A stretch of DNA of 59,029 nucleotides, from IMG/VR virus record IMGVR_UViG_3300021963_000146, positions 1-59,029 of that record; one strand, given 5' to 3'. Position numbers and translations under genes: made by a program. Below, in pieces: positions 1,812-49,436 of this stretch (its first letter is position 1; every line of letters begins with the position of its first letter). This DNA comes from a virus. Lineage: Duplodnaviria; Caudoviricetes. Under the pieces are notes generated by a model, which ran no database searches, was not told the origin of the DNA, and worked only from the letters and a program-made list of their open reading frames with translations.

Positions 1812-4800
1812 ATGCCCACACCAATTAATACTGATCTCTATGATCGTATTATTCAGCACTTAGCTGATACAAGGCTATATGAATTAGAGACATCAACGAA
1901 TGTTTCAAGAGGTATCCGTAGGCATCAAAAGAGGCTTAGGGATATCCTAAAATCAAATATTAAAGCAGACGTTAAACCAGAGATAACAAGGGCTACTCGT
2001 GAATTACACATGATTGTGGATAATTCAGTTACTGACTATGCAGGAGCCGCAGTAAACTTTCATACTAATAACTTAGATAAGAGTACTGGGTCTTTCTTTA
2101 GAGTTCAACGACCAAAGGCTAGTGATGCTATTCCAAATTTAATTGGACCTAACATTACTGCATCTAAAACTCTTAGACAACACTTTGATGCTATTGGCAG
2201 TGGAGAGTTAGCTAGGATAGATGGAAAAGTAAAGTCTGGTTTAGCTGATGGAAAGTCAACTAATCAAATTCTAGATGAAGTCATTCGTACTACTGCACTT
2301 ACTGAAGTACAGGCTAAAGTTCTAGTAAGAACCGCTATTACAAATACACAGTCCACTGCAATGAATATTGTAATGAACCGTAATAACGAAATTCTTGCTG
2401 GATACCGCTTTACTGCTGTGTTAGACAATCGTACATCACCTATTTGTGCGCACCATGATGGTGAAATCTATAAGATTGATGATCTAAGGTTTCGTCCACC
2501 ATTGCATTGGAATTGCCGTAGCTCAATGGTTCCTATTCTAAAGAATAAAGAACAACTACTAAAGTCTTTAGAGGAAACTCCAGACAGTAGACTTAAGGCT
2601 AACAAGCTTAAAGAGGCTAATCCCATTGCTCTTGATGGTGGTGCTCCTCCAGTAGAGACTTACAGTATTTGGCTTAAACGTCAACCTATGGCTGTTCAAG
2701 TTAAACACCTTGGTAGTGAAGAAAAGGCTGGATTGCTACAAAAGGGTGCTTTAGATGTTAAAGCATTTACTACTACAAAAGGTAATCAGCTTAGTATTGC
2801 GGCATTAAGGAAACTTGATAACGCTAGAACACTATGGTTTCCTACTAGACAGACTGTTGTTAGTAAAGCTGAGGAAAACTTATTCCAGCTAAACGTAGCC
2901 AGACCAAATGAATTGTTACGAAATACAGAGGCTCAAAGGCAACTTAGAGAAATGTATATTGCTGACTCAGATAATGTGGCTCAGGCTATCTCATTAACAG
3001 ACTATCGTGGTACTACACTTGCAGGAAAAAGATCTGTACGTGTTCGATCTAACAATGAGTTTGATGAACGTAATAACAGCTTTGACCCCTTTACAGGAGA
3101 GCAGAGTTCTACGTTATTATATGATCCTGACTACATTACATTACAAGAGCGACTTGATTTTGTTAAGAACTCAAAGGTTCTCTCTCAAGATCAAAAGATA
3201 TGGATTAGAGACTTTGTAGAAAGCTTAGATGAGTCAGTCTCTGTTAATCAACAGACTGCTGTAGCTGAGAACTTGCGTGTTGTATTTGAACGATACAATA
3301 ACGATAAGCAACCTTGGGTTAACTTCATGAATGTTGTTCGTGGAGAAATGCAATACTCTGTAGTCAATACTAGTCGTATTCTTGATCGTAGATCTAGGGC
3401 TAGGTCGCAATTGTTTGACAATTATGGCGTTGCTGGAGAGCCAGCTAAGGTTCAGATCTTTGGTAAATACTATTCATTTGATGAGATAGTTAACAAGACA
3501 TTAGAGAATCAACGATATACAGATGCTTGGTCAGAGAGACATGGAAGGCCGCTAGCTAGGAAGATATTGTATACAGGTAGAACTCCTCTATACACTTGGT
3601 TTAAAGGACCTCTAACAAGAGACTCAAAATCATTTAGTAAGAAGTTAGAGACATTTGTAAGAGAAGAAATTCCTGGTGGTGCTTTATGGCTAGACAGAAA
3701 TAAACCTAAAGAGGGTTTAATAGAAAAATATATTAGAGAGAAGAGAGAAGATCTTCGGAAAATTCTAGATCTTGAGTTTCTTTATCGTGGTAATAAACAA
3801 AGCTATACACAACAATTTATTGAGTCTAGGACTAACGATAAATTTGTTATTGATTCTTTGTCAAGAGTGTTATCAGTAGTGGCAGATGGAAAATCTACTG
3901 ACTATGATACACTAGCTATTAACATTGGTAAAGAATTAAGAAGTAACTGGAAGTATCCAGAATTTCCTTTCTTTAAATCAACATTAAAGGACTATCACTC
4001 AGATGGTTCAGAGATTCTTACTGCACTGAAAGATTCAGGCTACATTCGTGTAGTTAAACGTGGTAAGACCAGACGTTCAGTTGTTGACCTTGAAACAGGT
4101 CGTGCAAGTGGACCTTGGAGAGATACAATTAGTCGTGAGGTTCAAATCCTAGACAAGGATATGCTTGATCTTCAAAGAACTAATAGAGCATTGATTGTAA
4201 GTCAACGAATTGGTATTAACAACAATAGAGACAAACTCTATGTTAGACCAGGCGAGAAAACTTATTTTGATGCTAGAGGTAAGAATACAGGAATTACTGT
4301 TATTACTCGTAGGGCTAATGCTAACTACGATAAACTATTAATTGATAAAGATTTTGCTGATATGCTTAATCACACTATGTCAGTTCAATATGAAGTTGAC
4401 AATGAGTTTGCTGGATTCATGGAAGATGTTGTACGCTTTAGAGATCCCCGTGGGAACGTAAAGAAGTATGATGACTTAAATGACTTTAGAAAACTTATCT
4501 TGACTCGTGGAGATCAAGGATACAGTTTGATTCAGACAGTAAAGTATCATAGGGATACAGGTAAACCATTTAGTGTAGTTGCTAATATCGATGGTCGTGG
4601 ACGTGTCTACTACCAAGGATTCTTAACACCCACAGGTGGTGAAGTTGTTCGTCCATTCTTAAATACCGCTAAGGCAGAGGTTGCTACACCTGAGATTGTT
4701 CAGGAGTTAATGATTCAAACTGGTTCTATGTTAGGTCCAGCAACAGAGGCATTAACACAAGCAGGTCGAATGGAAATCTTTATGAGGAATCAGAAGGATG

Positions 4801-6233
4801 TACTAAGCTTAGGTAGACTCATGAGAGAAACTACACAGCGTGACAGACGTATTAGGGACTTCTTAGAACACCCTATTGTTCGTTCGCAAGAGGCTGAAGA
4901 GATTCCAAAGATTGCTAGATTAGCTATTGAGTATGCTCGGATATACGATCATGTCAATGGTGACTTTACTAACTTGAAAAAGTTATCAACATATAAAACA
5001 AAATTGATGATTGAGAATGATGCTTCATCCTCAGGTGCTCAGATCATTGGATTGAGTACAGGAGATAGAAGTATTTCAATCAACTCGAATGTGTTACCTA
5101 CACTACAGAAGAATCGATTGTATGACTTAGTTGCTATGGATACAGTGTCTGATCCAGAGTTCCAAAAGATACAAGGATTAAGAGAAGCTAATATTCAGTG
5201 GACAGACTTACAGAAGGCTGCTAAAGCACAGAATATGGTGTCATTCTATGGTGCTGGTAAAGCAACACAGGCGGCTAATATTGAGGCTAAATTTGCTTCA
5301 GTGTTAGAGACAAAAGGATATACTGTTGTTACTCGTGAAGAACTTCGTGGAGTAACTAATATTATAGATGCAAAGATTAAAGACGCAGATAGGCTAGGAG
5401 CCGATAATGTCGTGTTTGGTCTGAAACAATTAAAACGTGAGTTGAATGAGGTAGTTGAAGGTGAAACCCCTGTGGGGCAAGAACTTTTAGCTCATGCTCG
5501 TGATTCTCACCCAGACGTAGAAGCGTTTGTCGATAAGTTAATGAATGCTCGTAAGGGACTAATTGGTCCTCAAGACTTTAAAGCTGTATCTGAGATCATG
5601 TCTCAGAAACTAGCTGAACGAGCACCAGTAACACAAAAATTCGTACAATTCTGGAAAGTAGCTGCTAAAGCTTACGTTGATGAAACTCAGAAGGTCGATG
5701 TACCTTGGGTAACATTTGATGGTAAGACTTTATACCAGAGATACAGACCTAAAATCCAAACTAGCATTGAGTTCTATGACAAAGAGGCTGGTAGGATGGT
5801 CCGTAACATTTACGAAGATCGAGCAGAAGATGCTTCACTTCTAGGAAAATCAAGCTTGATGAGAGCTGGTATTGGCATGGGGGTTAATGGTAACCACATG
5901 AATGATGCCTCTATTGTTAGAAGATTCCATTTATGGGGTCGTAAAAACGGTATTGAAACCGCTACGATTCATGATGCTTTCTTCACAAACATCGGACTTG
6001 CAGCTAAGTCAAAGGTAGCCCTTAGAGAAATTTATGCGGATGCCCTTGAAGGTGATACAATAGAAAAAACTTTACTTGCTCTCAGAGAAGAAGGGTTGTC
6101 GAAAGCAACCTATAATTCTTTAAGACAAAAGGCTATTGAGGATGGCTTAATAAATCCTCGAAACAAAATTACGAGAAAAGATATACTAGCTCCTATTCCG
6201 AAGGGAATGGATTGGTATGGCATTGGACCGTAA
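1812..6233 (+). CDS. MuF (SPP1 gp7-like) head morphogenesis domain fused to a T7-family single-subunit RNA polymerase; putative virion RNAP
   Basis: N-terminus: AKVLVRT...FTAVLDNRTSPICAHHDG...PPLHWNCRS (MuF signature). C-terminus: DGRGR (aa 927), motif A ENDASSSGAQ (D1070), motif B KAQNMVSFYG (K1138/Y1146), NGNHMND, and motif C TIHDAF (H1387/D1388). One uninterrupted ORF with an AAGGAG RBS. Confidence 0.92.
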   Translation: MPTPINTDLYDRIIQHLADTRLYELETSTNVSRGIRRHQKRLRDILKSNIKADVKPEITRATRELHMIVDNSVTDYAGAAVNFHTNNLDKSTGSFFRVQRPKASDAIPNLIGPNITASKTLRQHFDAIGSGELARIDGKVKSGLADGKSTNQILDEVIRTTALTEVQAKVLVRTAITNTQSTAMNIVMNRNNEILAGYRFTAVLDNRTSPICAHHDGEIYKIDDLRFRPPLHWNCRSSMVPILKNKEQLLKSLEETPDSRLKANKLKEANPIALDGGAPPVETYSIWLKRQPMAVQVKHLGSEEKAGLLQKGALDVKAFTTTKGNQLSIAALRKLDNARTLWFPTRQTVVSKAEENLFQLNVARPNELLRNTEAQRQLREMYIADSDNVAQAISLTDYRGTTLAGKRSVRVRSNNEFDERNNSFDPFTGEQSSTLLYDPDYITLQERLDFVKNSKVLSQDQKIWIRDFVESLDESVSVNQQTAVAENLRVVFERYNNDKQPWVNFMNVVRGEMQYSVVNTSRILDRRSRARSQLFDNYGVAGEPAKVQIFGKYYSFDEIVNKTLENQRYTDAWSERHGRPLARKILYTGRTPLYTWFKGPLTRDSKSFSKKLETFVREEIPGGALWLDRNKPKEGLIEKYIREKREDLRKILDLEFLYRGNKQSYTQQFIESRTNDKFVIDSLSRVLSVVADGKSTDYDTLAINIGKELRSNWKYPEFPFFKSTLKDYHSDGSEILTALKDSGYIRVVKRGKTRRSVVDLETGRASGPWRDTISREVQILDKDMLDLQRTNRALIVSQRIGINNNRDKLYVRPGEKTYFDARGKNTGITVITRRANANYDKLLIDKDFADMLNHTMSVQYEVDNEFAGFMEDVVRFRDPRGNVKKYDDLNDFRKLILTRGDQGYSLIQTVKYHRDTGKPFSVVANIDGRGRVYYQGFLTPTGGEVVRPFLNTAKAEVATPEIVQELMIQTGSMLGPATEALTQAGRMEIFMRNQKDVLSLGRLMRETTQRDRRIRDFLEHPIVRSQEAEEIPKIARLAIEYARIYDHVNGDFTNLKKLSTYKTKLMIENDASSSGAQIIGLSTGDRSISINSNVLPTLQKNRLYDLVAMDTVSDPEFQKIQGLREANIQWTDLQKAAKAQNMVSFYGAGKATQAANIEAKFASVLETKGYTVVTREELRGVTNIIDAKIKDADRLGADNVVFGLKQLKRELNEVVEGETPVGQELLAHARDSHPDVEAFVDKLMNARKGLIGPQDFKAVSEIMSQKLAERAPVTQKFVQFWKVAAKAYVDETQKVDVPWVTFDGKTLYQRYRPKIQTSIEFYDKEAGRMVRNIYEDRAEDASLLGKSSLMRAGIGMGVNGNHMNDASIVRRFHLWGRKNGIETATIHDAFFTNIGLAAKSKVALREIYADALEGDTIEKTLLALREEGLSKATYNSLRQKAIEDGLINPRNKITRKDILAPIPKGMDWYGIGP

Positions 6234-6299
6234 GAGTTTAAGTTTGTAACTAAACCCTAATAAATTAAAATTAAATGGCTGTGCCAAAGGAAAATAAAG

Positions 6300-6995
6300 A
6301 TGAAAGTAGATAAGTTCGGAAACAAAGAGTTCCTCGATGATGGCAACACACCCAACCCAGAGTTTAAAGCTGATGAGGTTGATAATGGTGGTGGAGGTGC
6401 TAACAATAAAGATACAGAAGACATGATCAATCGTATGGTTGAAGAGCGTCTCTCTAAAATCAAACTAAGTTTAGATAAAGCTTACCAAGAGCGAGACAAT
6501 GCTGTTAAAGAGCGTGTCCGACTGGAAGACGAAGCTAAACAACGTAAGATGAAATCTTTGGAGGACGAAGGTAAGCATAAAGAAGTTGCTGAGATGAAGC
6601 TCGCAGAACTCACTGAAAAGCTTGCGTTAGCCGAAGGCAAAGTAACTGAACTCACTCGAGATGGTGCGGTTCGTAATGCATTAACTGGTCTTGATTTCCG
6701 TAATGACCGATCTGGCCAAATGGCCTATCGTGATATTATCGATCAACTCATCCAAGATCCAGAGACTGGTGCATGGATTCACAAATCTGGTGTATCAATC
6801 AAGGATTTTGTAGGACAATATGTAAAGAATGAAGATAATTCTTTCCTATTTAAACCTAAATCTAATTCAGGGGGTGGTAGTAACAATATGAACGGTACTC
6901 CCAAACTCGATCCCAACAAGAAGATTACTGACATGACTACTGAAGAAGTGCTTGCACTTGCTGCAGGAGGCAAACTAGGTAACTTCACCCTTTAA
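6300..6995 (+). CDS. Capsid scaffolding protein
   Basis: Charged coiled-coil protein with FLFKPKSNSGGGS near the C-terminus, directly before the capsid gene. Confidence 0.75.
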   Translation: MKVDKFGNKEFLDDGNTPNPEFKADEVDNGGGGANNKDTEDMINRMVEERLSKIKLSLDKAYQERDNAVKERVRLEDEAKQRKMKSLEDEGKHKEVAEMKLAELTEKLALAEGKVTELTRDGAVRNALTGLDFRNDRSGQMAYRDIIDQLIQDPETGAWIHKSGVSIKDFVGQYVKNEDNSFLFKPKSNSGGGSNNMNGTPKLDPNKKITDMTTEEVLALAAGGKLGNFTL

Positions 6996-7015
6996 AATCA
7001 TAGGAGATTTTTTAA

Positions 7016-8110
7016 ATGATTAATCATACAATGTTCCAAAACGTAGCTATTGCTATTTCTGCATACGCTGATGAAATGTACACAAACGCCAAGAAGCTTA
7101 ACAGCACTGGTATTGTTGGTACAGATGCCCGTATCGACCCAACAGGCGAGAGCTTCATTGGTCAAATGCGCTGGTACAAACCTTTGGCAGCTAACATTAA
7201 CGTTGCTAGCTTGTCTGTTTCTAACGCTGGTAATTACACTGACGTGTCTACCGAAATTGCTGACTACATTAAAACAGTCCGTACCTTTGGTTCACAACAA
7301 GTTAACCTCCAGCAAATCGTCTCTCAACAAGATGGTCTGTCTAAGATTGCCCGTGACTTCTCTGAAGTTCGTAGCCAAGACGAATCTGACGCTATTGTGT
7401 CTACACTCAAAGGTGTAGCCGCTTACGAAGTTTCTCGTGGCGCTGGTATTGTTGACTACACCACAGACGCTGATGGCGCTGGTGTTGGTAACTTCGTTGA
7501 CATTAACGCTGCTGGTACCTTTGGTGCTGCTGCTGCTACGTCTGCATCTGATCAGCGTAAACTGTTTGATGCTACAGCTATTGGTGCTGCCCGTGGTCAA
7601 CGCTTGTTCCAAGCTCTTGGCATGGCATTCAAGGACTATGAGCCTGACTTCATGTACATGATCACTTCTCCAGAAGTTTTGGCTGAACTCCGTGCCGCTA
7701 ACTTGGTTGACGTGACAACTGTTACCGATGGTAACTTGACATTCCAAACCGTGTTCGGTGGTAAATTCCGTTTGATCTTGAGCCGTGTTGCTCAAGGCGA
7801 CTTGTCTGCTTCTGCTAACGTGAATGATCGTTCTACAAAGACTACATTCATCTGCAAACCAGGTGCTATCAGCTTTACAAACATTGCTGTTCCTACACCT
7901 GTTGAAGTTGACCGTGATGCGGCTTCTTACACTGGTGGTGGCTCTACCTCTATTTGGTATCGTTATGGCTTCGTGGCTCACCCAATGGGCTATGACTGGG
8001 CTGGCGCTACTAACGCATTCGCTACTAATGCCAACTTTGCAACCGCTGGTTCATGGGCACGTAAGATGAGTGCATTGAATTTGGGTATTCTGCCTATTCT
8101 CCACGCTTAA
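7016..8110 (+). CDS. Major capsid protein
   Basis: 364 aa after the scaffold with an AGGAG RBS and highly biased codon usage. The C-terminal PVEVDRDA...GGGST...HPMGYDW pattern is typical of siphophage coat proteins. Confidence 0.85.
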   Translation: MINHTMFQNVAIAISAYADEMYTNAKKLNSTGIVGTDARIDPTGESFIGQMRWYKPLAANINVASLSVSNAGNYTDVSTEIADYIKTVRTFGSQQVNLQQIVSQQDGLSKIARDFSEVRSQDESDAIVSTLKGVAAYEVSRGAGIVDYTTDADGAGVGNFVDINAAGTFGAAAATSASDQRKLFDATAIGAARGQRLFQALGMAFKDYEPDFMYMITSPEVLAELRAANLVDVTTVTDGNLTFQTVFGGKFRLILSRVAQGDLSASANVNDRSTKTTFICKPGAISFTNIAVPTPVEVDRDAASYTGGGSTSIWYRYGFVAHPMGYDWAGATNAFATNANFATAGSWARKMSALNLGILPILHA

Positions 8111-8127
8111 TCCATTAGGAGGAACTG

Positions 8128-8625
8128 ATGGCACTAGTCCTAGGTACAAACACATATGTAACTATGGTCGAGGCTGACGCATACTTTGATACTCGCATTG
8201 ATGCGGGTGCATGGTTAAATGCAGATGACGATGACCAAGAGTCAGCATTAGTGACTGCAACTCTTTTACTTGATGAAAATCAATTTATTGGTGTTGCTGT
8301 CAGTTCCACACAGAGTCTTGCGTGGCCTCGTAAAGGGGCTTCAACTTTTGATCCCCGATTGGGACAATCGATTACTTACGGTGAATCTGAAATTCCAAAA
8401 AGAATGAAGAGTGCTGTGCTAGAAATGGCATATCATTTATTGTCTAATGAAAACTTGTTAGATAACAAATCTCAAAACTTTGAAGAAATTTCAATCGGTA
8501 CTATTACATTGAAAGATAGTAATAACGACACTACTAGAACACCTATGGTGCCTAGTCTTGTTAAGAAGTACTTAAAACCACTATTAATTAATCAGGGTTC
8601 ATCCCAGTGGTGGAGGGCAAATTAA
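8128..8625 (+). CDS. Head-tail adaptor (DnaT-like phage family)
   Basis: NTYVTMVEADAYF and QSLAWPR motifs; first gene after the capsid. Confidence 0.75.
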   Translation: MALVLGTNTYVTMVEADAYFDTRIDAGAWLNADDDDQESALVTATLLLDENQFIGVAVSSTQSLAWPRKGASTFDPRLGQSITYGESEIPKRMKSAVLEMAYHLLSNENLLDNKSQNFEEISIGTITLKDSNNDTTRTPMVPSLVKKYLKPLLINQGSSQWWRAN

Positions 8626-8970
8626 ATGTCTCTCAAATCAAAAGTGCAACAATCCGTAGATACTGCCTTTACTAAACTAAAGGATCTTTCGGTAACAGCT
8701 ACTTTTGACAATAAGATCGTCAGTGGTTTTAATTTTGCCACTGGTTCGATTACGAAAACAGATCAAGCATATACGACACAAGGTTTTCTTACCGCAAGTA
8801 AGAGCTATGAGTCTGGTATTCCTGTGACTACAACAACACTCACAATTAAAAATAATGCTACAATAAACTTTAGTAGATACTCTAGGGTAACTATTAATTC
8901 CGTTGAATACGGATGTAACATTGTCTCTAAGGATGATTTCATTGTTGTACTATCTTTAGCAGGAGTATGA
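8626..8970 (+). CDS. Putative head-closure protein
   Basis: 114-aa beta-rich ORF; call rests on synteny only. Confidence 0.5.
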   Translation: MSLKSKVQQSVDTAFTKLKDLSVTATFDNKIVSGFNFATGSITKTDQAYTTQGFLTASKSYESGIPVTTTTLTIKNNATINFSRYSRVTINSVEYGCNIVSKDDFIVVLSLAGV

Positions 8971-8971
8971 T

Positions 8972-9379
8972 ATGAATATGTATAGTAATTTAAAGTCAGA
9001 CATATATGGGGTATTTGCCTCAAGCACATGGACAGCTACGGGATATAAAGCATATCCTTCAAACTACAGTGGAGAGATAAACTCTACTAGTTCTTTTATT
9101 AGGATTAGTATTTTACCAGGAAACGGTACAGTAGAAAGTCATGGGCTTAAGAAAAAATTCTCAGGTATGTTAATACTATCGATCTTTGTCAAGGCAGGTA
9201 ATGGTGATTCGGAATTGTTCACTATTGCCGATACTATAGATTCTTTCTTTCAAGGTAAGACTTTGACAAATGGAACTCAATTTGGCGCAAGCACGCTTAT
9301 GCAGCTTGGCCCTGACCTCGCAGATAAATCACTTTATCGTGGGGACTATTCAATAAATTTTAAAGCTTATGGAGATTAA
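8972..9379 (+). CDS. Putative tail terminator/completion protein
   Basis: GMLILSIFVKAGNG...ADTIDSFF pattern; lies just before the tail tube gene. Confidence 0.6.
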   Translation: MNMYSNLKSDIYGVFASSTWTATGYKAYPSNYSGEINSTSSFIRISILPGNGTVESHGLKKKFSGMLILSIFVKAGNGDSELFTIADTIDSFFQGKTLTNGTQFGASTLMQLGPDLADKSLYRGDYSINFKAYGD

Positions 9380-9384
9380 AACAC

Positions 9385-9936
9385 ATGGCACATATTACAT
9401 CTATTGGCGCTGGTATTTATTCTGCTCTCGCAGTTAATACTACCGCTATTACTAACATCACTTCTGCTGACACATTAGCAGAATTGGTAGCTCTTTTTGC
9501 TGATGACACATCGTTCAAAGAAGTTAAGAACGTTCGTGAATTCCCACAAATTGGTACACCCGCTAACATTGTTAACGTACCTGTTTATGGTTCAGCAACC
9601 TCACAACAAATCCAAGGTCAATCTGACGCTCCTAACCTCGAAATCACGATTAACTACGTGCCTTCCGAGTGGGACCCTACTGTTGTAGGCGGTTTGGGCG
9701 GTAAAATTGGTGATGGTAAGCAATACGCTTTCCAATTCTCTTTGCTCAACTCTAAGCCTGCAAGTTTGGAAACAAACGCAACTGGTTTGGGTGCTGGCGC
9801 TAACTCTAACTTCTACTTCGTTGGTAAGTTGGAAGCTTTGTTGGTCAGCCCACAGTTGACAGATGCTAACCAAGCAACATTGACTTTGTCTGTTCAGAGT
9901 CAGTTCTACGGTCCTGCTACTGTAGCTGCGGTCTAA
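9385..9936 (+). CDS. Major tail (tube) protein
   Basis: NVREFPQIGTPANIVNVPVYG...QIQGQSDAP motif, high-expression codon bias and synteny. Confidence 0.8.
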   Translation: MAHITSIGAGIYSALAVNTTAITNITSADTLAELVALFADDTSFKEVKNVREFPQIGTPANIVNVPVYGSATSQQIQGQSDAPNLEITINYVPSEWDPTVVGGLGGKIGDGKQYAFQFSLLNSKPASLETNATGLGAGANSNFYFVGKLEALLVSPQLTDANQATLTLSVQSQFYGPATVAAV

Positions 9937-9941
9937 GAACT

Positions 9942-9961
9942 AGGGGTCTCGTACCCCTTTT
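9942..9961 (+). terminator. Probable intrinsic terminator after the tail tube gene
   Basis: AGGGGT-CTCGT-ACCCCT followed by a short T run. Confidence 0.55.
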
Positions 9962-9983
9962 ACCAGGGGACGCTAAAGAGAGA
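9959..9983 (+). promoter_or_regulatory. Putative phage RNAP promoter, class B, copy 1
   Basis: TTTACCAGGGGACGCTAAAGAGAGA is identical to 26254-26278, is intergenic, and resembles the SP6 promoter core (AGGTGACACTATAG). Confidence 0.75.
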
Positions 9984-10030
9984 TCTCTCCGAGGCTCCCC
10001 TAGGTATTTATAAGTATTATAAGGATAATT

Positions 10031-10270
10031 ATGGTTAATGATGATAAACCACCATTCAGTAAAGCATTTGTAATGAAGACTACATTCCGTCATATGAGAC
10101 GTAGTGTTGATATTAGTATTCGTAAATCATTTGAAAGGTTTCAAGACTTTGATAAAGATAGCGAAGCAGGTAAAGAGATCATGGAAACATTGTCTGTTCT
10201 TCATACAGTACGAAAAGTACTAGATGATTTTCAAGAAAATAATAAACATCTATTCAGTGATAATAAGTAA
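10031..10270 (+). CDS. Hypothetical protein
   Basis: 79 aa with an AAGGA RBS, directly downstream of the class B promoter. Confidence 0.7.
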   Translation: MVNDDKPPFSKAFVMKTTFRHMRRSVDISIRKSFERFQDFDKDSEAGKEIMETLSVLHTVRKVLDDFQENNKHLFSDNK

Positions 10271-26253: not shown

Positions 26254-26278
26254 TTTACCAGGGGACGCTAAAGAGAGA
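26254..26278 (+). promoter_or_regulatory. Putative phage RNAP promoter, class B, copy 2
   Basis: Exact 25-nt match to 9959-9983, with continued partial similarity downstream; intergenic. Confidence 0.75.
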
Positions 26279-26306
26279 ACCTCCCAAGCCTCCCTTGGTT
26301 ATTATT

Positions 26307-41763: not shown

Positions 41764-41774
41764 GGAAATTAGAT

Positions 41775-42134
41775 ATGGCACATTATGCAAAAGTAACAGA
41801 TGGTAAAGTAACACAAGTAATCGTTGCTGAACCAGATTTTTTCGACACATTTGTAGACTCTAGTCCAGGTCAATGGATTCAAACAAGCTATAATACTCAT
41901 GGTGGTCAGCATCCTGAAGGACGACCATTGCGCAAGAACTATGCAGGAATCGGCTACACTTATGATGCACAACGAGATGCATTTATCCCTCCTAAGCCAT
42001 TCCCATCATGGACGCTTAGTGAAGAAACCTGCTTGTGGTCTGCACCAGTTGCAATGCCTACAGACGATAAGATGTATACATGGGATGAACCAACAACAGC
42101 ATGGGTTGAAGTAACACCACCTACAGGAGCTTAA
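41775..42134 (+). CDS. Phage hypothetical protein associated with glycine-rich fibre clusters
   Basis: MAHYAKV...WIQTSYNT...RKNYAGIGYTYD...AFIPPKPFPSW. Start re-called to ATG 41775 (AAGGA RBS). Confidence 0.65.
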   Translation: MAHYAKVTDGKVTQVIVAEPDFFDTFVDSSPGQWIQTSYNTHGGQHPEGRPLRKNYAGIGYTYDAQRDAFIPPKPFPSWTLSEETCLWSAPVAMPTDDKMYTWDEPTTAWVEVTPPTGA

Positions 42135-42135
42135 T

Positions 42136-43023: not shown

Positions 43024-43032
43024 GGAACGAAT

Positions 43033-44562
43033 ATGGGATTTTCAAGAAATCTTTCTAAGCTAGCGGATGATGTAGATTCAACAGGAAAGCTATTACCTAC
43101 TGCTGGTGGGTTACCAACTCAAACAAGTCAATCAGGTAAATTTTTAACAACAGATGGCACAAGCCCTACATGGTCTACTGTTGATAGTTTACCCTCACAA
43201 ACTAGTAACTCAGGTAAGTATCTGACAACTAATGGTAGTGCGGCATCTTGGGGTACTATTAGTAATCTCAGTATTAGTGGCATTGTATATCCAGGAGATG
43301 ATACAGCAGCAAACCCTAGTGGTGGTCAAACACTAAACATGACAGGAACAGGTTTCCAAGGTACTCCAACTGTATATGTAGGTGGTACATTAGCTTCCTC
43401 TGTAAGTTTTATTAGTTCTGGTTTATTGACATTTACAGCTCCAGCTAAAACTGCAGGAACTTATGATATCTATGTTGTAAACCCTGGTGGTGCAACTGCA
43501 ATTAGTGTACTTGGAATAAGCTATTCAGGGGTTCCTACTTGGTCAACTGCTGCTGGTAGTCTTGGTACTGCCAATGTTTCCACTAGTTTTAGTACTACCT
43601 TAAGTGCAAGTAGTAATAGCACTGTTACATATTCAATAGTAAGTGGCGCATTGCCAAATGGATTAAGTTTAAATAGTAGTACAGGAGTTATTTCTGGTAC
43701 TACGCCTAGTCCTGATAATACTACTACGTATAGTTTTACTGTTAGAGCTACAGATGCAGAAAATCAGGATACGGATAGAAGTTTTAGTATAGAGATATTT
43801 GTAAATAGTTTTGGCACGTACACGACTACAGATTTGTTTATGCATTATGATTTTTCCAATACTACATCTTATAGTGGTTCTGGATCAACAATAACAGACT
43901 TACAAGGTACTCGAAATGGTACAGTTACTGGAGCAACTTTTGGTGGCACAGGAACAGCTAAATATTTTGATTTTGAAGCGGATAGTATCAACTACATAGC
44001 TTTTGGTTCAACGATACCAAGTGGACAATCTACAAGTGCTTTATCTATGGAGGCATGGATCTTTACAGAGAGTTTAGCTGGTACATATGTCGGTGAAGGT
44101 ATTGGAGCCGTATGGTCTTCTCAAAATGATAGTGGACAATCTGGAGCTAGTATAAACACTGATACTCGTAGCGCACACGGTGGCGGACCTAATGGATGGC
44201 ATCCACAAATTGGCGGAGTAAATGCAAGTTTTGCAACCAATTCGATAAATACTAATACACCTAGCGGAACTGCTAGTGTAAGTAATCGTTGGGATCACGT
44301 TGTAATGGTTTGGAGTAATGGAACTTCAATCGATGTTTATAAAAATGGCACCAACATAAGTACTAATACTACTGGTTGGTCAGCAACAATTAACTGGTCA
44401 AATACGTGGTGGGCGCTTGGAGCGCAACAATCCAATACTGCATCAGGTTCTAGACGTGCTTATGATGGTAAAATTGCTATTGCAAGAATATATAATCGTA
44501 GATTAACTTCCACAGAAATATTAGCTAACTACAACGGTCAAAAGTCAAGGTTTGGTTTATAA
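43033..44562 (+). CDS. Adhesin-like protein (IPT/TIG, Ig-like and LamG/concanavalin-like domains)
   Basis: GGQTL.MTGTGF...YDIYVVNP (TIG), GALPNGLSLNSSTGVISGT (Ig-like), and GKIAIARIYNRRLTSTEI..NYN (LamG). Confidence 0.7.
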   Translation: MGFSRNLSKLADDVDSTGKLLPTAGGLPTQTSQSGKFLTTDGTSPTWSTVDSLPSQTSNSGKYLTTNGSAASWGTISNLSISGIVYPGDDTAANPSGGQTLNMTGTGFQGTPTVYVGGTLASSVSFISSGLLTFTAPAKTAGTYDIYVVNPGGATAISVLGISYSGVPTWSTAAGSLGTANVSTSFSTTLSASSNSTVTYSIVSGALPNGLSLNSSTGVISGTTPSPDNTTTYSFTVRATDAENQDTDRSFSIEIFVNSFGTYTTTDLFMHYDFSNTTSYSGSGSTITDLQGTRNGTVTGATFGGTGTAKYFDFEADSINYIAFGSTIPSGQSTSALSMEAWIFTESLAGTYVGEGIGAVWSSQNDSGQSGASINTDTRSAHGGGPNGWHPQIGGVNASFATNSINTNTPSGTASVSNRWDHVVMVWSNGTSIDVYKNGTNISTNTTGWSATINWSNTWWALGAQQSNTASGSRRAYDGKIAIARIYNRRLTSTEILANYNGQKSRFGL

Positions 44563-44573
44563 TAGTAATAAAT

Positions 44574-44603
44574 GGTCACCCTGTAAAAAGGGTGGCCTTT
44601 TTT
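44574..44603 (+). terminator. Intrinsic terminator ending the structural operon
   Basis: GGTCACCCT-GTAAAA-AGGGTGGCC followed by TTTTTT. Confidence 0.85.
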
Positions 44604-44608
44604 ATCAA

Positions 44609-44681
44609 AAAAGTGAGAAAAATGACGTATCTATAATGAAGAAATATCATTTAGATAGAGTACTCAAAATTAAATAAACTC
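44609..44681 (+). repeat. Direct repeat copy 1; putative class A (early) promoter
   Basis: The 41 nt AAAAGTGAGAAAAATGACGTATCTATAATGAAGAAATATCA are identical to 44878-44918, followed by a shared AGATAGAGTACTCAAA. Confidence 0.8.
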
Positions 44682-44697
44682 TTTAAAAGGTAATATC

Positions 44698-44922
44698 ATG
44701 AGCTATGAAATTGATGTTTTGTTTAACAAAGTATTCGATTCTGAGAAAATGAGAAACTTCGGACATGTGCCACACGAAAGTTTAACCCCACAAGCAGTAC
44801 ACCGCATTACTCGCTCTATGGGTGAATATAAATCTTTTGATGATGTCTGGGCTGAAACATTTGCAAAAAGTTACTTTAAAAGTGAGAAAAATGACGTATC
44901 TATAATGAAGAAATATCAATAA
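44698..44922 (+). CDS. Hypothetical early protein
   Basis: 74 aa with an AAAGGT RBS; its 3' end is encoded by repeat copy 2. Confidence 0.65.
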   Translation: MSYEIDVLFNKVFDSEKMRNFGHVPHESLTPQAVHRITRSMGEYKSFDDVWAETFAKSYFKSEKNDVSIMKKYQ

Positions 44923-44948
44923 AGATAGAGTACTCAAATTAATAACTC
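44878..44948 (+). repeat. Direct repeat copy 2; putative class A (early) promoter
   Basis: Matches copy 1 and is followed by an AAGGAG RBS and ATG 44961. Confidence 0.8.
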
Positions 44949-44960
44949 AAGGAGAGTAAA

Positions 44961-45245
44961 ATGAAAAAGATAGTATTTGCAACAGCGTTAGTATTGCTTT
45001 CTAGCTCAGTGTTTGCTAATAGACCTTTAATGGTTGAAATGGTTAATGCAGAGAGCTATGTTGATAATCTTATAAAGGATGATGTGATTAAAGCCAAAGA
45101 TAGAGCATATTATGTATGTCAAGCTAAAGCTTTACTAAAGGCTGGAGATGATCTTGTAAAAGAGATTGACAATAGTCCTAATCCGCTTAAAACTGTTAAA
45201 CCAATGGATCCTGAAAAAATCATGAAACATTGTAAACACAACTGA
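44961..45245 (+). CDS. Hypothetical secreted protein
   Basis: Sec-type signal peptide MKKIVFATALVLLSSSVFA. Confidence 0.7.
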   Translation: MKKIVFATALVLLSSSVFANRPLMVEMVNAESYVDNLIKDDVIKAKDRAYYVCQAKALLKAGDDLVKEIDNSPNPLKTVKPMDPEKIMKHCKHN

Positions 45246-45287
45246 TGAGTCTTTATTAGACGAAACCGCTGAGAAGCGGTCTTGTGT
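45236..45287 (+). ncRNA. Type I hammerhead ribozyme
   Basis: Stem I ACACAA/TTGTGT, core CTGATGA, stem II GTCT/AGAC, GAAA, stem III CCGCT/AGCGG with a GAGA tetraloop, and a GTC cleavage triplet at 45279-45281. Confidence 0.92.
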
Positions 45288-45313
45288 ATTTCCCTTTAAC
45301 TATGGAGTTTAAA

Positions 45314-45724
45314 ATGAAAAAGTTCTTTATTGTGTTGACTTTGTGTGTAGCAAGCGTTTCTTCTTTTGCAGAGGAAGCCTTCTGTAAGCCAAAGGAGACC
45401 TTGAAGGTTGGTACTTATGGTGCTTTAGCAGGTGCTGCTGCAGCCTTGTTAATCCCTGGAGCTGGTCCTGTTCTTGCTACAAGTATTGTTACAGGTACTT
45501 TGGCAACTACAACAAATGTAGCAGTATGTGCATTTGATGAGAAAGATCGTAAGGATAAGTTAGCCTTGTTCAACGAAGCTAACAAACCTACAGCCTTTGA
45601 AAAAGCTGTTGTTACACCAGTAGAAGATCGTAGCATTAAGGATAAAGCAGTAATTGGCTTAACTTTAGGTTACGCAAAAGCTCACGAAGGTGTTTCTAAA
45701 GTGTACGATAACCTTACTAAATAA
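45314..45724 (+). CDS. Hypothetical secreted/membrane protein with a glycine-zipper-like segment
   Basis: Signal peptide MKKFFIVLTLCVASVSSFA and GALAGAAAALLIPGAG. Start re-called to ATG 45314 (GGAG RBS). Confidence 0.7.
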   Translation: MKKFFIVLTLCVASVSSFAEEAFCKPKETLKVGTYGALAGAAAALLIPGAGPVLATSIVTGTLATTTNVAVCAFDEKDRKDKLALFNEANKPTAFEKAVVTPVEDRSIKDKAVIGLTLGYAKAHEGVSKVYDNLTK

Positions 45725-45732
45725 GAGGATAT

Positions 45733-45828
45733 ATGTTAGAAGAAATTCTTAGCATTGGTTTAGCGGCTATAATTGCAGTAGCTTTGGTAGTTGCGTTGGT
45801 CAATAGCATTACCCTTTTAATTCAATAA
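45733..45828 (+). CDS. 31-aa single-pass membrane peptide (not in the ORF track)
   Basis: GAGG RBS; MLEEILSIGLAAIIAVALVVALVNSITLLIQ. Confidence 0.6.
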   Translation: MLEEILSIGLAAIIAVALVVALVNSITLLIQ

Positions 45829-45837
45829 GGTTTTAAA

Positions 45838-45948
45838 ATGAGAAAGTTTTTTGAATCAGAAACATTTATAAACATTGTAACTGCTATTGCTATTGGTTTA
45901 GGCCTTTGTGCATTAGTGTTACATGGTCTTGATGCTTTAGTTCAATAA
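45838..45948 (+). CDS. 36-aa single-pass membrane peptide (not in the ORF track)
   Basis: TAAGG RBS; MRKFFESETFINIVTAIAIGLGLCALVLHGLDALVQ. Confidence 0.6.
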   Translation: MRKFFESETFINIVTAIAIGLGLCALVLHGLDALVQ

Positions 45949-45957
45949 GGATTTAAA

Positions 45958-46071
45958 ATGATTTATTTTGTATATAACAAAGCCACTGGTAGTTTAATTA
46001 CAACCGTTGCATACATAGAAGACTTAAAACAGTTTAATCCTGAACTTGTAAGTGTAGTAACTTACATGTAA
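45958..46071 (+). CDS. 37-aa small protein (not in the ORF track)
   Basis: TAAGGA RBS; MIYFVYNKATGSLITTVAYIEDLKQFNPELVSVVTYM. Confidence 0.6.
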   Translation: MIYFVYNKATGSLITTVAYIEDLKQFNPELVSVVTYM

Positions 46072-46074
46072 TCC

Positions 46075-46150
46075 TTCTCGGATAGAGAGACCCTCTAGGG
46101 TATGTACTAGACTTTCTCAGCAGAGAGACCTCTTGGGGTAAGTACCAAGT
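46075..46150 (+). ncRNA. Tandem pair of hairpin plus H-type pseudoknot units (unknown structured element)
   Basis: Two units of about 38 nt. Each has a TCTC/GAGA hairpin and an ACC/GGT stem. The second stem is TCTAG/CTAGA in one copy and CTTGG/CCAAG in the other. Confidence 0.6.
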
Positions 46151-46172
46151 TCTTTTAATTTTGGAGTTTAAA

Positions 46173-46418
46173 ATGAGTAAATTTCTTTTGTTAAATCCGT
46201 TGTATGGCGATAACTTTGGTTGTACAGCACAAGAGATAATTGAATCACTAGAAGAATTTGGTCTTACCTACATATTCTCAAATGACACTAAAGGAATACC
46301 AGCAATTTATGCTACAAGTACTTCTAAAGAGTTGATTGAGAGAATGTGCACTGAAGTTGAGCTTGATGGTTCTATCATCGAGTTTACTTCAATCTATGAT
46401 CAAGTGATCGAGGATTAA
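46173..46418 (+). CDS. Hypothetical acidic protein
   Basis: GGAG RBS; start re-called to ATG 46173. Confidence 0.65.
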   Translation: MSKFLLLNPLYGDNFGCTAQEIIESLEEFGLTYIFSNDTKGIPAIYATSTSKELIERMCTEVELDGSIIEFTSIYDQVIED

Positions 46419-46420
46419 TT

Positions 46421-46675
46421 ATGTCTATATTAACTTTAAAGGCGGGTGACTATACTATTGAAGCAATTCAAGATGGTCCCTTTGATTCAGTTAGAGTTAC
46501 TGTCTATGATGATTATCTTCAGACTATAGTTCATCCTTCTTTGTATGATGTTAATTCAGCATACATGGTTGGGGAAACTGTAGCCTCAGTTATTACAGAG
46601 TCTGCGGAAGATTTCCGTAGAATCTTTAAGGCTGTAGAAGATTTAATGCTTGTAGATAAAAAGTTAGGAGTTTAA
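46421..46675 (+). CDS. Hypothetical protein
   Basis: GAGGA RBS; tightly packed with neighbours. Confidence 0.65.
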   Translation: MSILTLKAGDYTIEAIQDGPFDSVRVTVYDDYLQTIVHPSLYDVNSAYMVGETVASVITESAEDFRRIFKAVEDLMLVDKKLGV

Positions 46676-46676
46676 G

Positions 46677-46922
46677 ATGTGTAAAAAATGTCTTTTTAAT
46701 CCATCACCTGTTAATATTTCTGATGAAGAAGGTTATGTGTACCAAGTAGGAAAGGAGATCTACAACTATGTTCGTGCTCGTCATGAACCTCATAGTTTAG
46801 ACTTCTTTAATGCTGTTGGTCAAGAACTGGATCTTTGGAAAGTTAATCCATTAGCAAATTTAAATCAACGATTTAAGAGAATTGGTCATGTCAACACAAT
46901 CAGGAACAGTAAACAAGTCTAA
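46677..46922 (+). CDS. Hypothetical protein
   Basis: AGGAG RBS; N-terminal CxxC. Confidence 0.6.
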   Translation: MCKKCLFNPSPVNISDEEGYVYQVGKEIYNYVRARHEPHSLDFFNAVGQELDLWKVNPLANLNQRFKRIGHVNTIRNSKQV

Positions 46923-47085
46923 GAAATATAACACTTTTCAAATTTTATTTGTTGAGTGGTTTTTGTACTTTGTTATACTAGTATTATTAGATGGTGGTCA
47001 CAACAGTATTGAAGATTCCGCAGGGGGTGCTTTAATGTTGTTGTCTATTATCAGAATTTTTCTATTCTTCAAGAAGACAAAATAA
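46888..47085 (+). CDS. Hypothetical two-pass membrane protein
   Basis: Two hydrophobic segments. Confidence 0.55.
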   Translation: MSTQSGTVNKSKKYNTFQILFVEWFLYFVILVLLDGGHNSIEDSAGGALMLLSIIRIFLFFKKTK

Positions 47086-47089
47086 TACG

Positions 47090-47122
47090 ACTCCCTGCCA
47101 GCGGGAGTATAATCTAGCTGGC
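47090..47122 (+). promoter_or_regulatory. H-type pseudoknot upstream of the RNAP2 operon
   Basis: Stem 1 ACTCCC/GGGAGT, 1-nt loop, stem 2 GCCAGC/GCTGGC, 8-nt loop. Followed by TTTTCTT and an (AAT)n run. Confidence 0.7.
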
Positions 47123-47159
47123 TTTTCTTATCAAAAATAATAATAATAATAAGGACTCT

Positions 47160-47258
47160 ATGAACGTTTGGAAAGCATGCCTAATTGTAGGTTTGGTTTA
47201 TTTAGCAAGAAAAGTTGTAAACCATATGGAGGAAGCTGAAATAGAAATGAAGGAATAA
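47160..47258 (+). CDS. 32-aa peptide (not in the ORF track)
   Basis: AAGGA RBS; MNVWKACLIVGLVYLARKVVNHMEEAEIEMKE. Confidence 0.55.
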   Translation: MNVWKACLIVGLVYLARKVVNHMEEAEIEMKE

Positions 47259-47261
47259 TAG

Positions 47262-49436
47262 ATGGATAATAATATTCTTGATAAATTAGTATTAGACTTA
47301 AATAAGCGACAGTCTGTATTAAGGGCTGATCGTAATATTTATACCCACTATTTAAAAGATATTGATTCTAAACTTTTAGTTGATATATCTTATCCTCATA
47401 TTCTCCGTGGACTAGAACGTAATGGTACTCTCGTAGATATTATTGCTACTATTGGTCGTAGAGTTAGACAATCTTTGGATTTACCTAACGATACAATCTC
47501 TGATGCACAAGTTGGCTGGTTTATTTGTATTGCCTATATTGAATGTAATATATTAAGTTTCAAACTTAAATATACATACAAGAATGGTAAGAAAAGTAAA
47601 TACCAGGCTTACTTCTTCCAGATTAAAGACTGGAAAGCAATTAAAGAACTCTGGGGTTTAATTGATCAAACTAAGGTTGATATATTCCCATTGAGAGAAG
47701 CACCTCAGCCATGGTCAACAGCTTACAACAATTTAGGCGTACCTATTATTAAGAAAGGGCATTCAACAGCTTTAGCTCAATTTAAGGAAGATGATAAGCA
47801 AATGCTTTATGATATCCTGAACAAGCTACAAGCAACCGGATGGAGAATTAATAACGATATTCTTCCTGTCTATAAGTACTTCTTACATAAGAATACTACA
47901 CCTAGCCCATTCAAGATCCACACTGAGATTGATGAAGAGAAAAAGAAATCACTGATTATTGAAGCAGATGCTATTGAGCAGCTTGCTGAGAGTCATAAGG
48001 ATAATGCTTTTTATCATGTATATAACTTTGACTTCCGTGGTCGTGTATATGTGAATACTGCATTTCTTCATGAACAGTCTAGTGATAATGCCAAAGGTTT
48101 ACTCTTACTAGATCAAGCTACACCACTAGGTGAGAATGGTTTGTTCTGGTTAAAAGTTCACACAGCAAACTCTTTCGGAAACGACAAGGTGACGCTAAAG
48201 CAGAGAGCCGAGTTTGTAGATGAAAATATTAATTTGTTTTTATCTTATGCAGAGAAACCAACTATTAATCAAGGTTGGATTGATACTGATGCTCCTTTCT
48301 CTTTCTTAGCCGCTTGTAATGAACTTAGGAAAATTAAAGAATGGCTTATGCAAGGTAATCAGTTAGCAGACTATGAATGTCCTCTACCTGTTTATATTGA
48401 TGGTTCTAATAACGGTGTTCAGCATCTAGTGGCTATGTCGCAAGATGAAGATATTGCACCACTAGTTAACCTAGTACCACAAGAACTTCCTGGTGATGTA
48501 TACATGTATATTGCAAAATATGTATGGCAGAATTTACAGGAATTAGCAGATAAGCTTACTCAAGAAGAGCGAGATCAGTTTGATGAGGTCTATAATACGG
48601 CTAAGTCACTCCAGAAAGCTTACTTTGATGCTCCAGAAAAGACAGAGCAAAAGGCACTAGCCTATGCTGCTGCTCAAGAATGGAGAAATAAGAATCGTGC
48701 TATTAGAGAGAAATTGTTTCCTATTTACTGGCTTAAGATTGATAGCCCTAAAGATCAACGTAAAGTAGTAAAGAGAAACGTTATGACTCTTGGCTATGGC
48801 GGTACAGCCTATGGTATGGGTCAGCAAATCATAGATGATACACGAGATATGTCAGAGTATCTGCGTGATAAAGAACATCTCTGGGGTGCTATGTTGGGTG
48901 ATCTGGTGTTTGAGACTTGTTACGAAAAACTCAAAGGACCAGCTACAATGCTTCGTATGTTTCAAGATCTTGCACAAAGATCTAACAACAAAGATGTATT
49001 CCTTAAGTGGACAACACCTGTAACTAACTTTCCAGTTGTACAGGCATATCGTAAGCCATCTATTGTTCGTACCAAACTAAAGTACGGTGAAGAAGAATTA
49101 AAGATTCAACTTCAAACTTGGGAGGAGGCCACTATTAACAAAGACTCTCAAAAGACAGGTGCTGCACCAAATATCGTGCATAGCTTTGATGCTGCTCACC
49201 TAACAATGACTGTTGTATCTGCACCCTATGAAATGACTGTTGTTCATGATTCCTTTGGCACATTGCCTGGACGTATGGATGATTTGTTTTATAGAGTTAG
49301 AGAACAGTTTGTAGAGTTCTACAAGAGTAAACCTCTGGAAAAATTATTGTCTGAACTTGAATGTGAAGACCTAATTCCAAATAGGGGTAAGCTTGATGTA
49401 GGACAAATTGTGTACTCTGATTATGCTTTTTGTTAA
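47262..49436 (+). CDS. T7-family single-subunit DNA-directed RNA polymerase (RNAP2)
   Basis: DFRGRVY, motif A IDGSNNGVQH, motif B RKVVKRNVMTLGYG, PNIVHSFDAAH, motif C VHDSFG, and C-terminal YAFC. Confidence 0.96.
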   Translation: MDNNILDKLVLDLNKRQSVLRADRNIYTHYLKDIDSKLLVDISYPHILRGLERNGTLVDIIATIGRRVRQSLDLPNDTISDAQVGWFICIAYIECNILSFKLKYTYKNGKKSKYQAYFFQIKDWKAIKELWGLIDQTKVDIFPLREAPQPWSTAYNNLGVPIIKKGHSTALAQFKEDDKQMLYDILNKLQATGWRINNDILPVYKYFLHKNTTPSPFKIHTEIDEEKKKSLIIEADAIEQLAESHKDNAFYHVYNFDFRGRVYVNTAFLHEQSSDNAKGLLLLDQATPLGENGLFWLKVHTANSFGNDKVTLKQRAEFVDENINLFLSYAEKPTINQGWIDTDAPFSFLAACNELRKIKEWLMQGNQLADYECPLPVYIDGSNNGVQHLVAMSQDEDIAPLVNLVPQELPGDVYMYIAKYVWQNLQELADKLTQEERDQFDEVYNTAKSLQKAYFDAPEKTEQKALAYAAAQEWRNKNRAIREKLFPIYWLKIDSPKDQRKVVKRNVMTLGYGGTAYGMGQQIIDDTRDMSEYLRDKEHLWGAMLGDLVFETCYEKLKGPATMLRMFQDLAQRSNNKDVFLKWTTPVTNFPVVQAYRKPSIVRTKLKYGEEELKIQLQTWEEATINKDSQKTGAAPNIVHSFDAAHLTMTVVSAPYEMTVVHDSFGTLPGRMDDLFYRVREQFVEFYKSKPLEKLLSELECEDLIPNRGKLDVGQIVYSDYAFC

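Follow-up and report, generated by a model that had tools for sequence, protein, structure and literature searches.

The window analyzed here is the whole of the linear IMG/VR virus record IMGVR_UViG_3300021963_000146 (59,029 bp, rated about 85% complete), which carries nearly all of its genes on the plus strand. Two genes for single-subunit RNA polymerases (RNAPs) are located in it. The first (1812–6233, +) encodes a protein of 1473 aa that matches both the Pfam families PF04233 and PF00940 and is named MuF-RNAP1 fusion, its polymerase part being RNAP1. The second (47262–49436, +) encodes RNAP2, a short canonical T7-like RNAP of 724 aa. Both had been reported in an initial annotation of this DNA. 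The two open reading frames (ORFs) were recovered at the positions given there, and a PF00940 search of the whole record yielded exactly two matches. Likewise, the motifs quoted for the two enzymes were found: the fusion contains ENDASSSGAQ, and RNAP2 contains IDGSNNGVQH.

RNAP2 was matched by PF00940 with E 1.5e-79 (268 bits, cut-off 22) and by T7 RNAP chains in the PDB with E 4e-61, the segments FDFRGRVY, IDGSNNGVQH, KRNVMTLGYGG, and VVHDSFGT being aligned. Its catalytic residues are D380 in motif A, K504 and Y512 in motif B, and the motif C VVHDSFGT. In a search of phage records, a close enzyme was found only in the roseophages DSS3_VP1 and DSS3_PM1 (49.5% identity, 99% of the length aligned); the next match, from Pelagibacter phage Kolga, had 28.7%. 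The gene is located after a block of small ORFs at 44.7–47.1 kb and, as annotated initially, before the replication module.

The fusion is 48% identical over its full length to the 'head morphogenesis' protein gp108 of DSS3_VP1. Its MuF (SPP1 gp7-like) domain comprises aa 136–239 (2217–2528, +) and was detected by PF04233 (Phage_Mu_F) with E 7.7e-13. The portal protein gene (134–1765, +; PHROG 145 portal protein, E 2e-58; Pfam DUF4055) lies immediately 5' of the fusion gene and the scaffold gene follows it; both the domain and the gene position are those of MuF/SPP1 gp7 minor head proteins. An AlphaFold 2 (AF2) model of aa 1–310 had a predicted local distance difference test score (pLDDT) of mostly >75. 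For the N-terminal 640 aa the pLDDT was 68.8, and a Foldseek search with this model against the PDB gave 162 matches, none of them at E ≤ 0.001. Pfam detected the MuF and RNA_pol domains only.

The polymerase module comprises aa 620–1473 (3669–6230, +). Pfam RNA_pol matched aa 1054–1425 by a thin margin (E 4.1e-6; 26.3 bits, cut-off 22). In an alignment of 18 sequences with 50–94% identity to the window, the residues DGRGR (927–931), D1070 of motif A, K1138 and Y1146 of motif B, and H1387-D1388 of motif C were invariant in 18 of 18 homologues; furthermore, the polymerase half of the fusion proved more conserved than the N-terminal half, with mean column identities of 71% and 59%, respectively. 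The AF2 model of the module reached a pLDDT of 73.4 and a predicted template modelling (TM) score of 0.70. A Foldseek search with this model returned T7 RNAP as the top match (E 2e-17; TM-score 0.44–0.50 over 850–930 columns), followed by mitochondrial polymerases, with no N4 chain among the best 50 matches. When the fusion was compared with the PDB by phmmer, only T7 RNAP was matched, near motif C (E ~1e-4), and no N4 chain. The profile of the 18 sequences gave in hhalign a probability of 95.9% (E 6.5e-9) for T7 RNAP and E 1.6e-4 for RNAP2; for aa 998–2103 of N4 gp50, the mini-virion RNAP (mini-vRNAP), the probability was 0.3% (E 0.24), i.e., no relation was detectable in this comparison. RNAP1 apparently combines a Pfam score above the cut-off, the catalytic motifs, and a right-hand fold with a T7-type N-terminal domain. 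As Foldseek and the profile comparison both favored T7 RNAP over the N4 enzyme, RNAP1 is classified here, on profiles and a modelled fold, as a very divergent T7-type polymerase and not as an N4-type polymerase. Judged from their complete catalytic motifs, both RNAP1 and RNAP2 look active.

The relationship of the two enzymes was analyzed by pairwise comparison and in a tree of 19 sequences. RNAP1 and RNAP2 share 21% identity over 527 columns (E 0.01). The RNAP1 clade received a support of 100/100 with a stem of 5.3 changes per column, it had no supported placement among T7-like enzymes, and RNAP1 and RNAP2 were not supported as sisters. RNAP2 grouped with Kolga (support 97/100), which was flagged as a long branch together with N4 mini-vRNAP and phiKMV. 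The initial view that the pair did not arise by recent duplication is thus borne out, and by these comparisons the two polymerases are anciently diverged. Trees of RNAP1 and of RNAP2 showed a broadly similar branching order. The window pairs with the complete relative G001 (76,946 bp) in the RNAP1 tree and with G002 in the RNAP2 tree, which hints at recombination between close relatives.

The weak scores of RNAP1 (26 bits in Pfam) and its long stem of 5.3 changes per column would also be expected if the module were an inactive relic whose only present role in the head is structural or DNA-binding. We consider this very improbable: the catalytic residues are invariant in all 18 homologues, conservation is higher in the module than in the other half of the protein, 190 clusters at 50% identity make this a large family, and in the complete relative G005 an insert with an ORF for an HNH endonuclease is located exactly at motif B, the exons on both sides being intact.

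Co-occurrence of the two polymerases, which the initial annotation had named as a check, was found in all five fusion-bearing records rated 100% complete and additionally in DSS3_VP1 and DSS3_PM1. Among partial fusion-bearing records PF00940 detected both enzymes in four of five at 58–86% completeness and in none of three at 38–51%. Kolga possesses the RNAP2 type only. In a protein collection clustered at 90% identity, 447 of 8000 candidates scored matched the polymerase part of RNAP1 at E ≤ 0.001; among the best 120 of these 447, PF04233 was found in 114, PF00940 in 101, and both in 95, and the six without PF04233 were all shorter than 1260 aa. A library clustered at 50% identity contained 190 matching representatives at E ≤ 0.001 and 72 at E ≤ 1e-30, and in long representatives (1400–2070 aa) the polymerase module starts near residue 580–930. 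The fusion was matched by 1015 phage records, of which only four covered at least 80% of it, namely DSS3_VP1 twice, DSS3_PM1, and EBPR siphovirus 1.

Several polymerase genes of this family are interrupted. In G005 (loci L109–L112) the RNAP1 gene (~49184–54400) carries a stop-containing insert with an ORF for an HNH-type endonuclease at motif B, between K-A and QNMVSFYG, and the RNAP2 gene (~6386–9600) carries a stop-containing insert after GYGGTAYGMG, at or just past motif B. In EBPR siphovirus 1 the two halves are separated by an HNH gene. Many representatives of the fusion family end or begin at profile position ~525; this split site seems to be common.

Promoter-like motifs were compared in seven genomes (the window, G001, G002, G004, G005, G006, and DSS3_VP1), with RNAP1 identities to the window ranging from 91% to 43% and GC contents from 35.5% to 55%. 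The initial annotation had proposed two separate motif classes. Both were found far above chance, and their territories are divided across the seven genomes into early regions, occupied by class E, and middle and late regions, occupied by class L.

Class E has the consensus AAAAGTGAGAAAA-N5-GYATCTATAAT-(A)GAAGAA, in short form GTGAGAAAA-N5-GYATCTATAAT. The window contains two copies on the plus strand, copy 1 at 44613–44637 (GTGAGAAAA-N5-GTATCTATAAT; found as repeat D15 and in motif scans) and copy 2 at 44882–44906 (found by repeat analysis and in motif scans). They are identical over 41 nt, and these two matches compare with 0.02 expected. Altogether, 13 full copies were found in seven of seven genomes, one to three in each, all on the strand of RNAP2 and 1.6–13.4 kb upstream of its gene; no full match was found elsewhere in the seven genomes, and DSS3_VP1 has one extra, core-only copy at 67795. 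Class E is kept over ~25 nt in phages with RNAP1 identities of 43–91% and GC contents of 35.5–55%. It includes CTATA (...ATCTATA), the sequence present at −5 to −1 of T7 promoters. The core contains no conserved inverted repeat, and variable inverted repeats occur downstream of some copies.

Class L has the consensus CCAGGGGACGYTAAAG, which in DSS3_VP1 takes the form ATAGGKTRCGTTAAAG. The strict pattern gave 39 matches in the seven genomes, and six matches with ≤3 mismatches were found in the window versus 0.04 expected. On the plus strand of the window, copies are located at 9961–9978 (TACCAGGGGACGCTAAAG), 3' of the major tail protein gene and with its position conserved in both G001 and G002; at 26256–26273 (repeat D14), within the tail and fibre gene region; and at 49441–49458, 5 nt past the stop codon of RNAP2. 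A variant with three mismatches, TACCAAGTGACACTAAAG, follows at 49477–49494 (+). Inside the RNAP2 gene a class L-like sequence of uncertain function, also with three mismatches, is located at 48183–48200 (+) and conserved in G001, and a motif scan gave a weaker match at 55073. A first class L copy at most ~25 nt past the RNAP2 stop codon is a placement shared by four of the seven genomes (the window, G001, G002, and G006), and two more copies in G001 precede the terminase region. In G004, which has the early genes together with RNAP2 in inverted orientation, class E and class L face away from each other within a single 50-nt region near 24.35 kb, class E facing the early arm and class L the late arm. 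From −5 to +1 class L reads CTAAA|G, in the context ...CGCTAAA|G plus a run of purines, as compared to ...CACTATA|G in phi1.1A and phi1.1B, two annotated T7 promoters. We take class L to resemble T3 and SP6 promoters as well. In the structural region class L was the only class found, and no third family-wide promoter class for late genes was detected.

Class L is assigned to RNAP2 because of this promoter likeness and its placement. Class E is assigned to RNAP1 by exclusion, because of its conservation across GC contents and presumably hosts, and because RNAP1 is carried by a MuF protein. According to a survey of polyvalent proteins, MuF proteins are head components, and delivery to the host is assumed for enzymatic domains fused to them (PMC5512222). 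Hence, we somewhat favor a cascade of two polymerases that is started from the virion, in which RNAP1 acts on class E, this leads to RNAP2, and RNAP2 acts on class L. The MuF-RNAP1 fusion would be built into the head beside the portal, as are MuF and SPP1 gp7, and would leave the capsid with the DNA. The RNAP1 module would then start transcription at the class E copies at 44613 and 44882, transcribe the small early genes, and read through a hairpin at 47.1 kb into the RNAP2 gene. RNAP2, in turn, would use the T7-like class L promoters, the first of them 5 nt past its own stop codon; other copies precede replication, packaging, and structural genes, and RNAP2 would thereby express the rest of the one-directional genome. 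Host RNA polymerase would perhaps be dispensable throughout. A cascade of this kind had been suggested initially; divergence, catalytic residues, co-occurrence, and motif territories speak for it, and packaging and ejection of the fusion, the reader of class E, and independence from rifampicin are what we infer.

T7 and Xp10 possess one such polymerase each, and their early genes are transcribed by the host polymerase. By analogy, host sigma-70 RNAP might read class E and produce RNAP2, which then acts on class L, and the head-borne RNAP1 might be auxiliary, with tasks such as pulling DNA in, priming replication, or giving an early boost to class L. The perfect TATAAT with its A-rich upstream tract in class E is in line with this, as are the hairpin and T-run terminators of the intrinsic type that flank the early block. 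A conserved sigma-70 −35 element was missing at 16–18 nt, where the hexamer varies between genomes, and the only conserved block upstream is GTGAGA, 13 nt from TATAAT. Furthermore, maintenance of a 25-nt motif across very different GC contents, including that of a Ruegeria phage, would be unusual for host promoters, and a head protein whose catalytic site is invariant would be left without a cognate promoter. The early region of the window contained 24 sigma-70-like sites as compared to 28.1 ± 4.9 expected, i.e., no excess. Initiation of early transcription by the host enzyme is therefore judged rather unlikely, while it is the most serious competitor of the cascade. Separately, reading class E as the sigma-70 promoter ATGACG-17-TATCAT was rejected, as this −35 hexamer falls in the variable N5.

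The fusion gene is part of the late structural operon and has class L promoters upstream, so the protein is made late, and a protein of 1473 aa must unfold to pass the tail of a siphovirus. It is thus conceivable that the fusion is not ejected, or is inactive when ejected, and that it serves as a late-phase polymerase in the producing cell or in transcription at the time of packaging. Against this, the structural region has class L only, without a third family-wide class being detected, and class E occurs only before small ORFs of the early type and RNAP2. Moreover, delivery of large virion polymerases is possible, as N4 and P23-45 show. We regard non-ejection as improbable and retain the cascade started from the virion.

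The early block consists of nine small ORFs (35-aa minimum) without known function at 44698–47085 (+), downstream of class E copy 1 and upstream of RNAP2. A PHROG scan of seven of them gave no match at E ≤ 0.001; one matched a family of unknown function at E 0.0098. Upstream, a terminator-like hairpin with T-run at 44574–44597 (+) closes the late gene block directly 5' of class E copy 1, and a hairpin with T-run directly precedes the first class E copy in six of the seven genomes. At the other end, 130 nt 5' of RNAP2, two alternative hairpins followed by TTTTCTTATCAAA are located at 47090–47135 (+) and are a candidate terminator or attenuator. Their stems, ACTCCC/GGGAGT and GCCAGC/GCTGGC, are mutually exclusive. 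G001 has the element conserved, and G006 shows a compensatory change in the second stem (GCTACG/CGTAGC).

Several observations weigh against the cascade. The perfect TATAAT in class E, following an A-rich tract, is the strongest objection, since it could act as a host sigma-70 promoter of the −10-only type. A hairpin with T-run is located 80–170 nt upstream of RNAP2 in all six genomes examined, and synthesis of RNAP2 therefore needs read-through, anti-termination, or an unrecognized promoter. The initial proposal that RNAP1 transcribes 44.6–49.4 kb including RNAP2 needs correction in this respect: with the conserved hairpin, simple co-transcription of RNAP2 with the early block is not expected, and attenuated or otherwise regulated read-through at 47.1 kb is implied. 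The RNAP1 model is only of moderate confidence (pLDDT 73), and its promoter-reading loop is poorly modelled. Variation in the specificity-loop region of RNAP2 showed no clean covariation with that of the class L promoters. EBPR siphovirus 1, a partial record of 54 kb, contains the fusion, no RNAP2, and no recognizable class E or class L; neither class was recognizable either in a scan of Kolga, which has an RNAP2-like enzyme only, so that the comparison of motifs in these two phages speaks neither for nor against the cascade. Finally, no virion proteomics was found in the main text of the DSS3 paper.

Two further elements were found in or next to the early block. Tandem 'class II' elements, CTTCTCGGATAGAGAGACC and a variant, occupy 46074–46130 (+). 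They share the leader GAGAGAC...hairpin...GGTAWGTAC with the sequence downstream of class L and differ in the upstream part. As these elements (46074 and 46112) are confined to the window and G001, they were rejected as a third family-wide promoter class; they could be RNA processing or stability elements or a lineage-specific promoter. The 11-mer TAATACGACTC at 47083–47093, identical to the start of a T7 promoter, was judged a coincidence because it is not conserved in G001.

Around class L, stem-loops are possible just 3' of two copies (9979–10010 and 26274–26303), so the transcript leader may be structured; the outer stem is formed by CCAGGGGA with TCCCCT(A)GG in one copy and with a G-U-compatible variant in the other. 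Directly behind the two class L motifs at the end of RNAP2, an ORF of 169 aa (49570–50079) is located between terminator-like hairpins at 49501–49528 and 50087–50106. Neither Pfam nor PHROG gave a match for it; DSS3_VP1 has a conserved counterpart (38% identity), and the product is probably an abundant middle protein.

Virion RNAPs occur in N4-like podophages, in jumbo and crAss-like phages, and in P23-45. The early promoters of N4 are DNA hairpins, and its late genes use the host polymerase. No such conserved hairpin was found in the core of class E, and RNAP2 is one polypeptide that appears to serve late genes too, whereas RNAPII of N4 consists of gp15/gp16; additionally, N4 is a podophage and the phage of the window a siphophage. 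For N4 (Schitoviridae; virion RNAP gp50, RNAPII gp15/gp16), the likeness lies in an injected polymerase, few early promoters, and a second, T7-like polymerase made early, and gp50 has ~3500 aa and a metallopeptidase domain as compared to 1473 aa and a MuF domain in the fusion (PMC5512222). The label 'N4-like' from the initial annotation is kept for the strategy only, because RNAP1 shows no detectable relation to N4 mini-vRNAP and no conserved hairpin promoter was found. Thermus phage P23-45 is a closer match in strategy: this siphophage is reported to have a virion RNAP within a structural protein, fused to the tape-measure protein, which transcribes pre-early genes including that of a second polymerase (10.1101/2022.12.01.518664). 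The P23-45 enzymes are of the two-barrel type, whereas RNAP1 and RNAP2 are both right-hand enzymes of the T7 type, and the carrier is the tape-measure protein in P23-45 and a portal-side MuF head protein in the window.

With T7-like phages and Xp10 the window shares RNAP2, which belongs to the same family (724 aa versus 883 aa of T7 RNAP) and is located at the end of the early block, and the T7 promoter layout of class L; it differs in the second polymerase of the head module and in early promoters that do not appear sigma-70-like. MuF-effector and polyvalent proteins are similar in that a MuF head domain is combined with an enzyme thought to be active in the newly infected cell; in its accessible text the survey places virion RNAP modules only in N4-like phages and does not mention a MuF-polymerase combination (PMC5512222). 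DSS3_VP1 and DSS3_PM1 are the closest isolates, with 48% (fusion) and 49% (RNAP2) full-length identity and the same gene order, and DSS3_VP1 has the same class E and a variant class L. In their records the fusion is annotated as 'head morphogenesis' or 'minor head protein-like protein', the polymerase domain being unnoted. The term 'RNA polymerase' does not occur in the main text of the Naomviridae family paper (PMC8323127), nor in the accessible text of a 2025 paper on Naomiviridae particles. Neither a polymerase fused to MuF nor a pair of polymerases in Naomviridae was found described in the literature covered, which excludes subscription journals and supplements, whose annotation tables may list these genes.

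By gene content, the phage of the window is a relative of the roseophages DSS3_VP1 and DSS3_PM1, and shared genes and synteny with DSS3_VP1 place it probably in the Naomviridae. With tblastn, 21 of the 62 window ORFs matched DSS3_VP1 (22–56% identity), with the head, tail, and replication modules in the same order. G001 is collinear with the window, and by this comparison ~21 kb are absent from the latter, including the genes for ribonucleotide reductase, the large terminase, and PhoH. According to Pfam and PHROG, the order in the head and tail region is portal, MuF fusion, scaffold, major head protein, head-tail adaptor, tail terminator, and major tail protein, followed by an ORF of 1990 aa with a weak match to the tape-measure gene of DSS3_VP1. 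The initial designation as a siphophage fits this portal-to-tape-measure order and the siphovirus morphotype reported for the DSS3 isolates (PMC8323127). Between 31272 and 44562, about a dozen consecutive genes encode fibre-like proteins that have glycine-rich repeats (runs of GGxGGxGG) and, at their N-termini, repeated modules. This region corresponds to the repeat families D2–D10, D12, and D16, is expanded and diversified, and is much shorter in G001. Genes 3' of RNAP2 encode 2'-deoxyribosyltransferase-like and DUF3310 proteins, a family A DNA polymerase, a dCMP-deaminase-family protein, a 5'-3' exonuclease, a GIY-YIG endonuclease, and a primase-helicase. The window contained no Rfam match at gathering thresholds and no tRNA gene. 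Parts of 44000–51000 were found in 15 sequencing runs. Contigs from four freshwater metatranscriptome runs of one study were 90–99% alike on pieces of the early block, RNAP2, and replication genes; these contigs show neither starts nor strand and may reflect DNA carry-over, hence they were not used for expression or start sites, and lack of cover elsewhere carries no meaning.

Other phages with deoxyuridine-containing DNA (dU-DNA), namely PBS1/AR9 and phiR1-37, carry their own virion and non-virion polymerases. The dCMP-deaminase-family protein of the window (55222–55635) is an orthologue (37% identity) of the DSS3_VP1 enzyme that was shown to be a dCTP deaminase. Nucleoside 2-deoxyribosyltransferase-like and DUF3310 proteins are encoded near the deaminase, at 50837–51250 and 51682–52272. 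Neither ThyA nor ThyX was found in the complete genome of G001. The 'phosphoesterase' gene of DSS3_VP1 likely encodes a dTMP phosphatase, and no homologue was found in the window or in G001. Both DSS3_VP1 and DSS3_PM1 are reported to have dU-DNA (PMC8323127), which was shown for these isolates. The DNA of the phage of the window may possibly be dU-DNA, too.

If the cascade is true, a T7-type enzyme on a MuF head protein of ordinary-sized siphophages would be both a new carrier and a new polymerase lineage. Members of the fusion family come from marine as well as freshwater samples and form at least 190 clusters of proteins at 50% identity. As a tentative and bolder proposal, which we hold with less confidence than the cascade itself, RNAP1 would be a third independent solution to virion-delivered transcription, a T7-type enzyme on a portal-side MuF protein, in a large family fully independent of host RNAP, maybe because dU-DNA is a poor template for host promoters; class E would in that case be a promoter that is read in dU form. 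As DSS3_VP1 is cultured together with its host, Ruegeria pomeroyi DSS-3, these predictions are directly testable. The cascade, if true, would yield two new orthogonal polymerase/promoter pairs, and it could explain how the first transcription of dU-DNA genomes is accomplished in a large, environmental family of phages.

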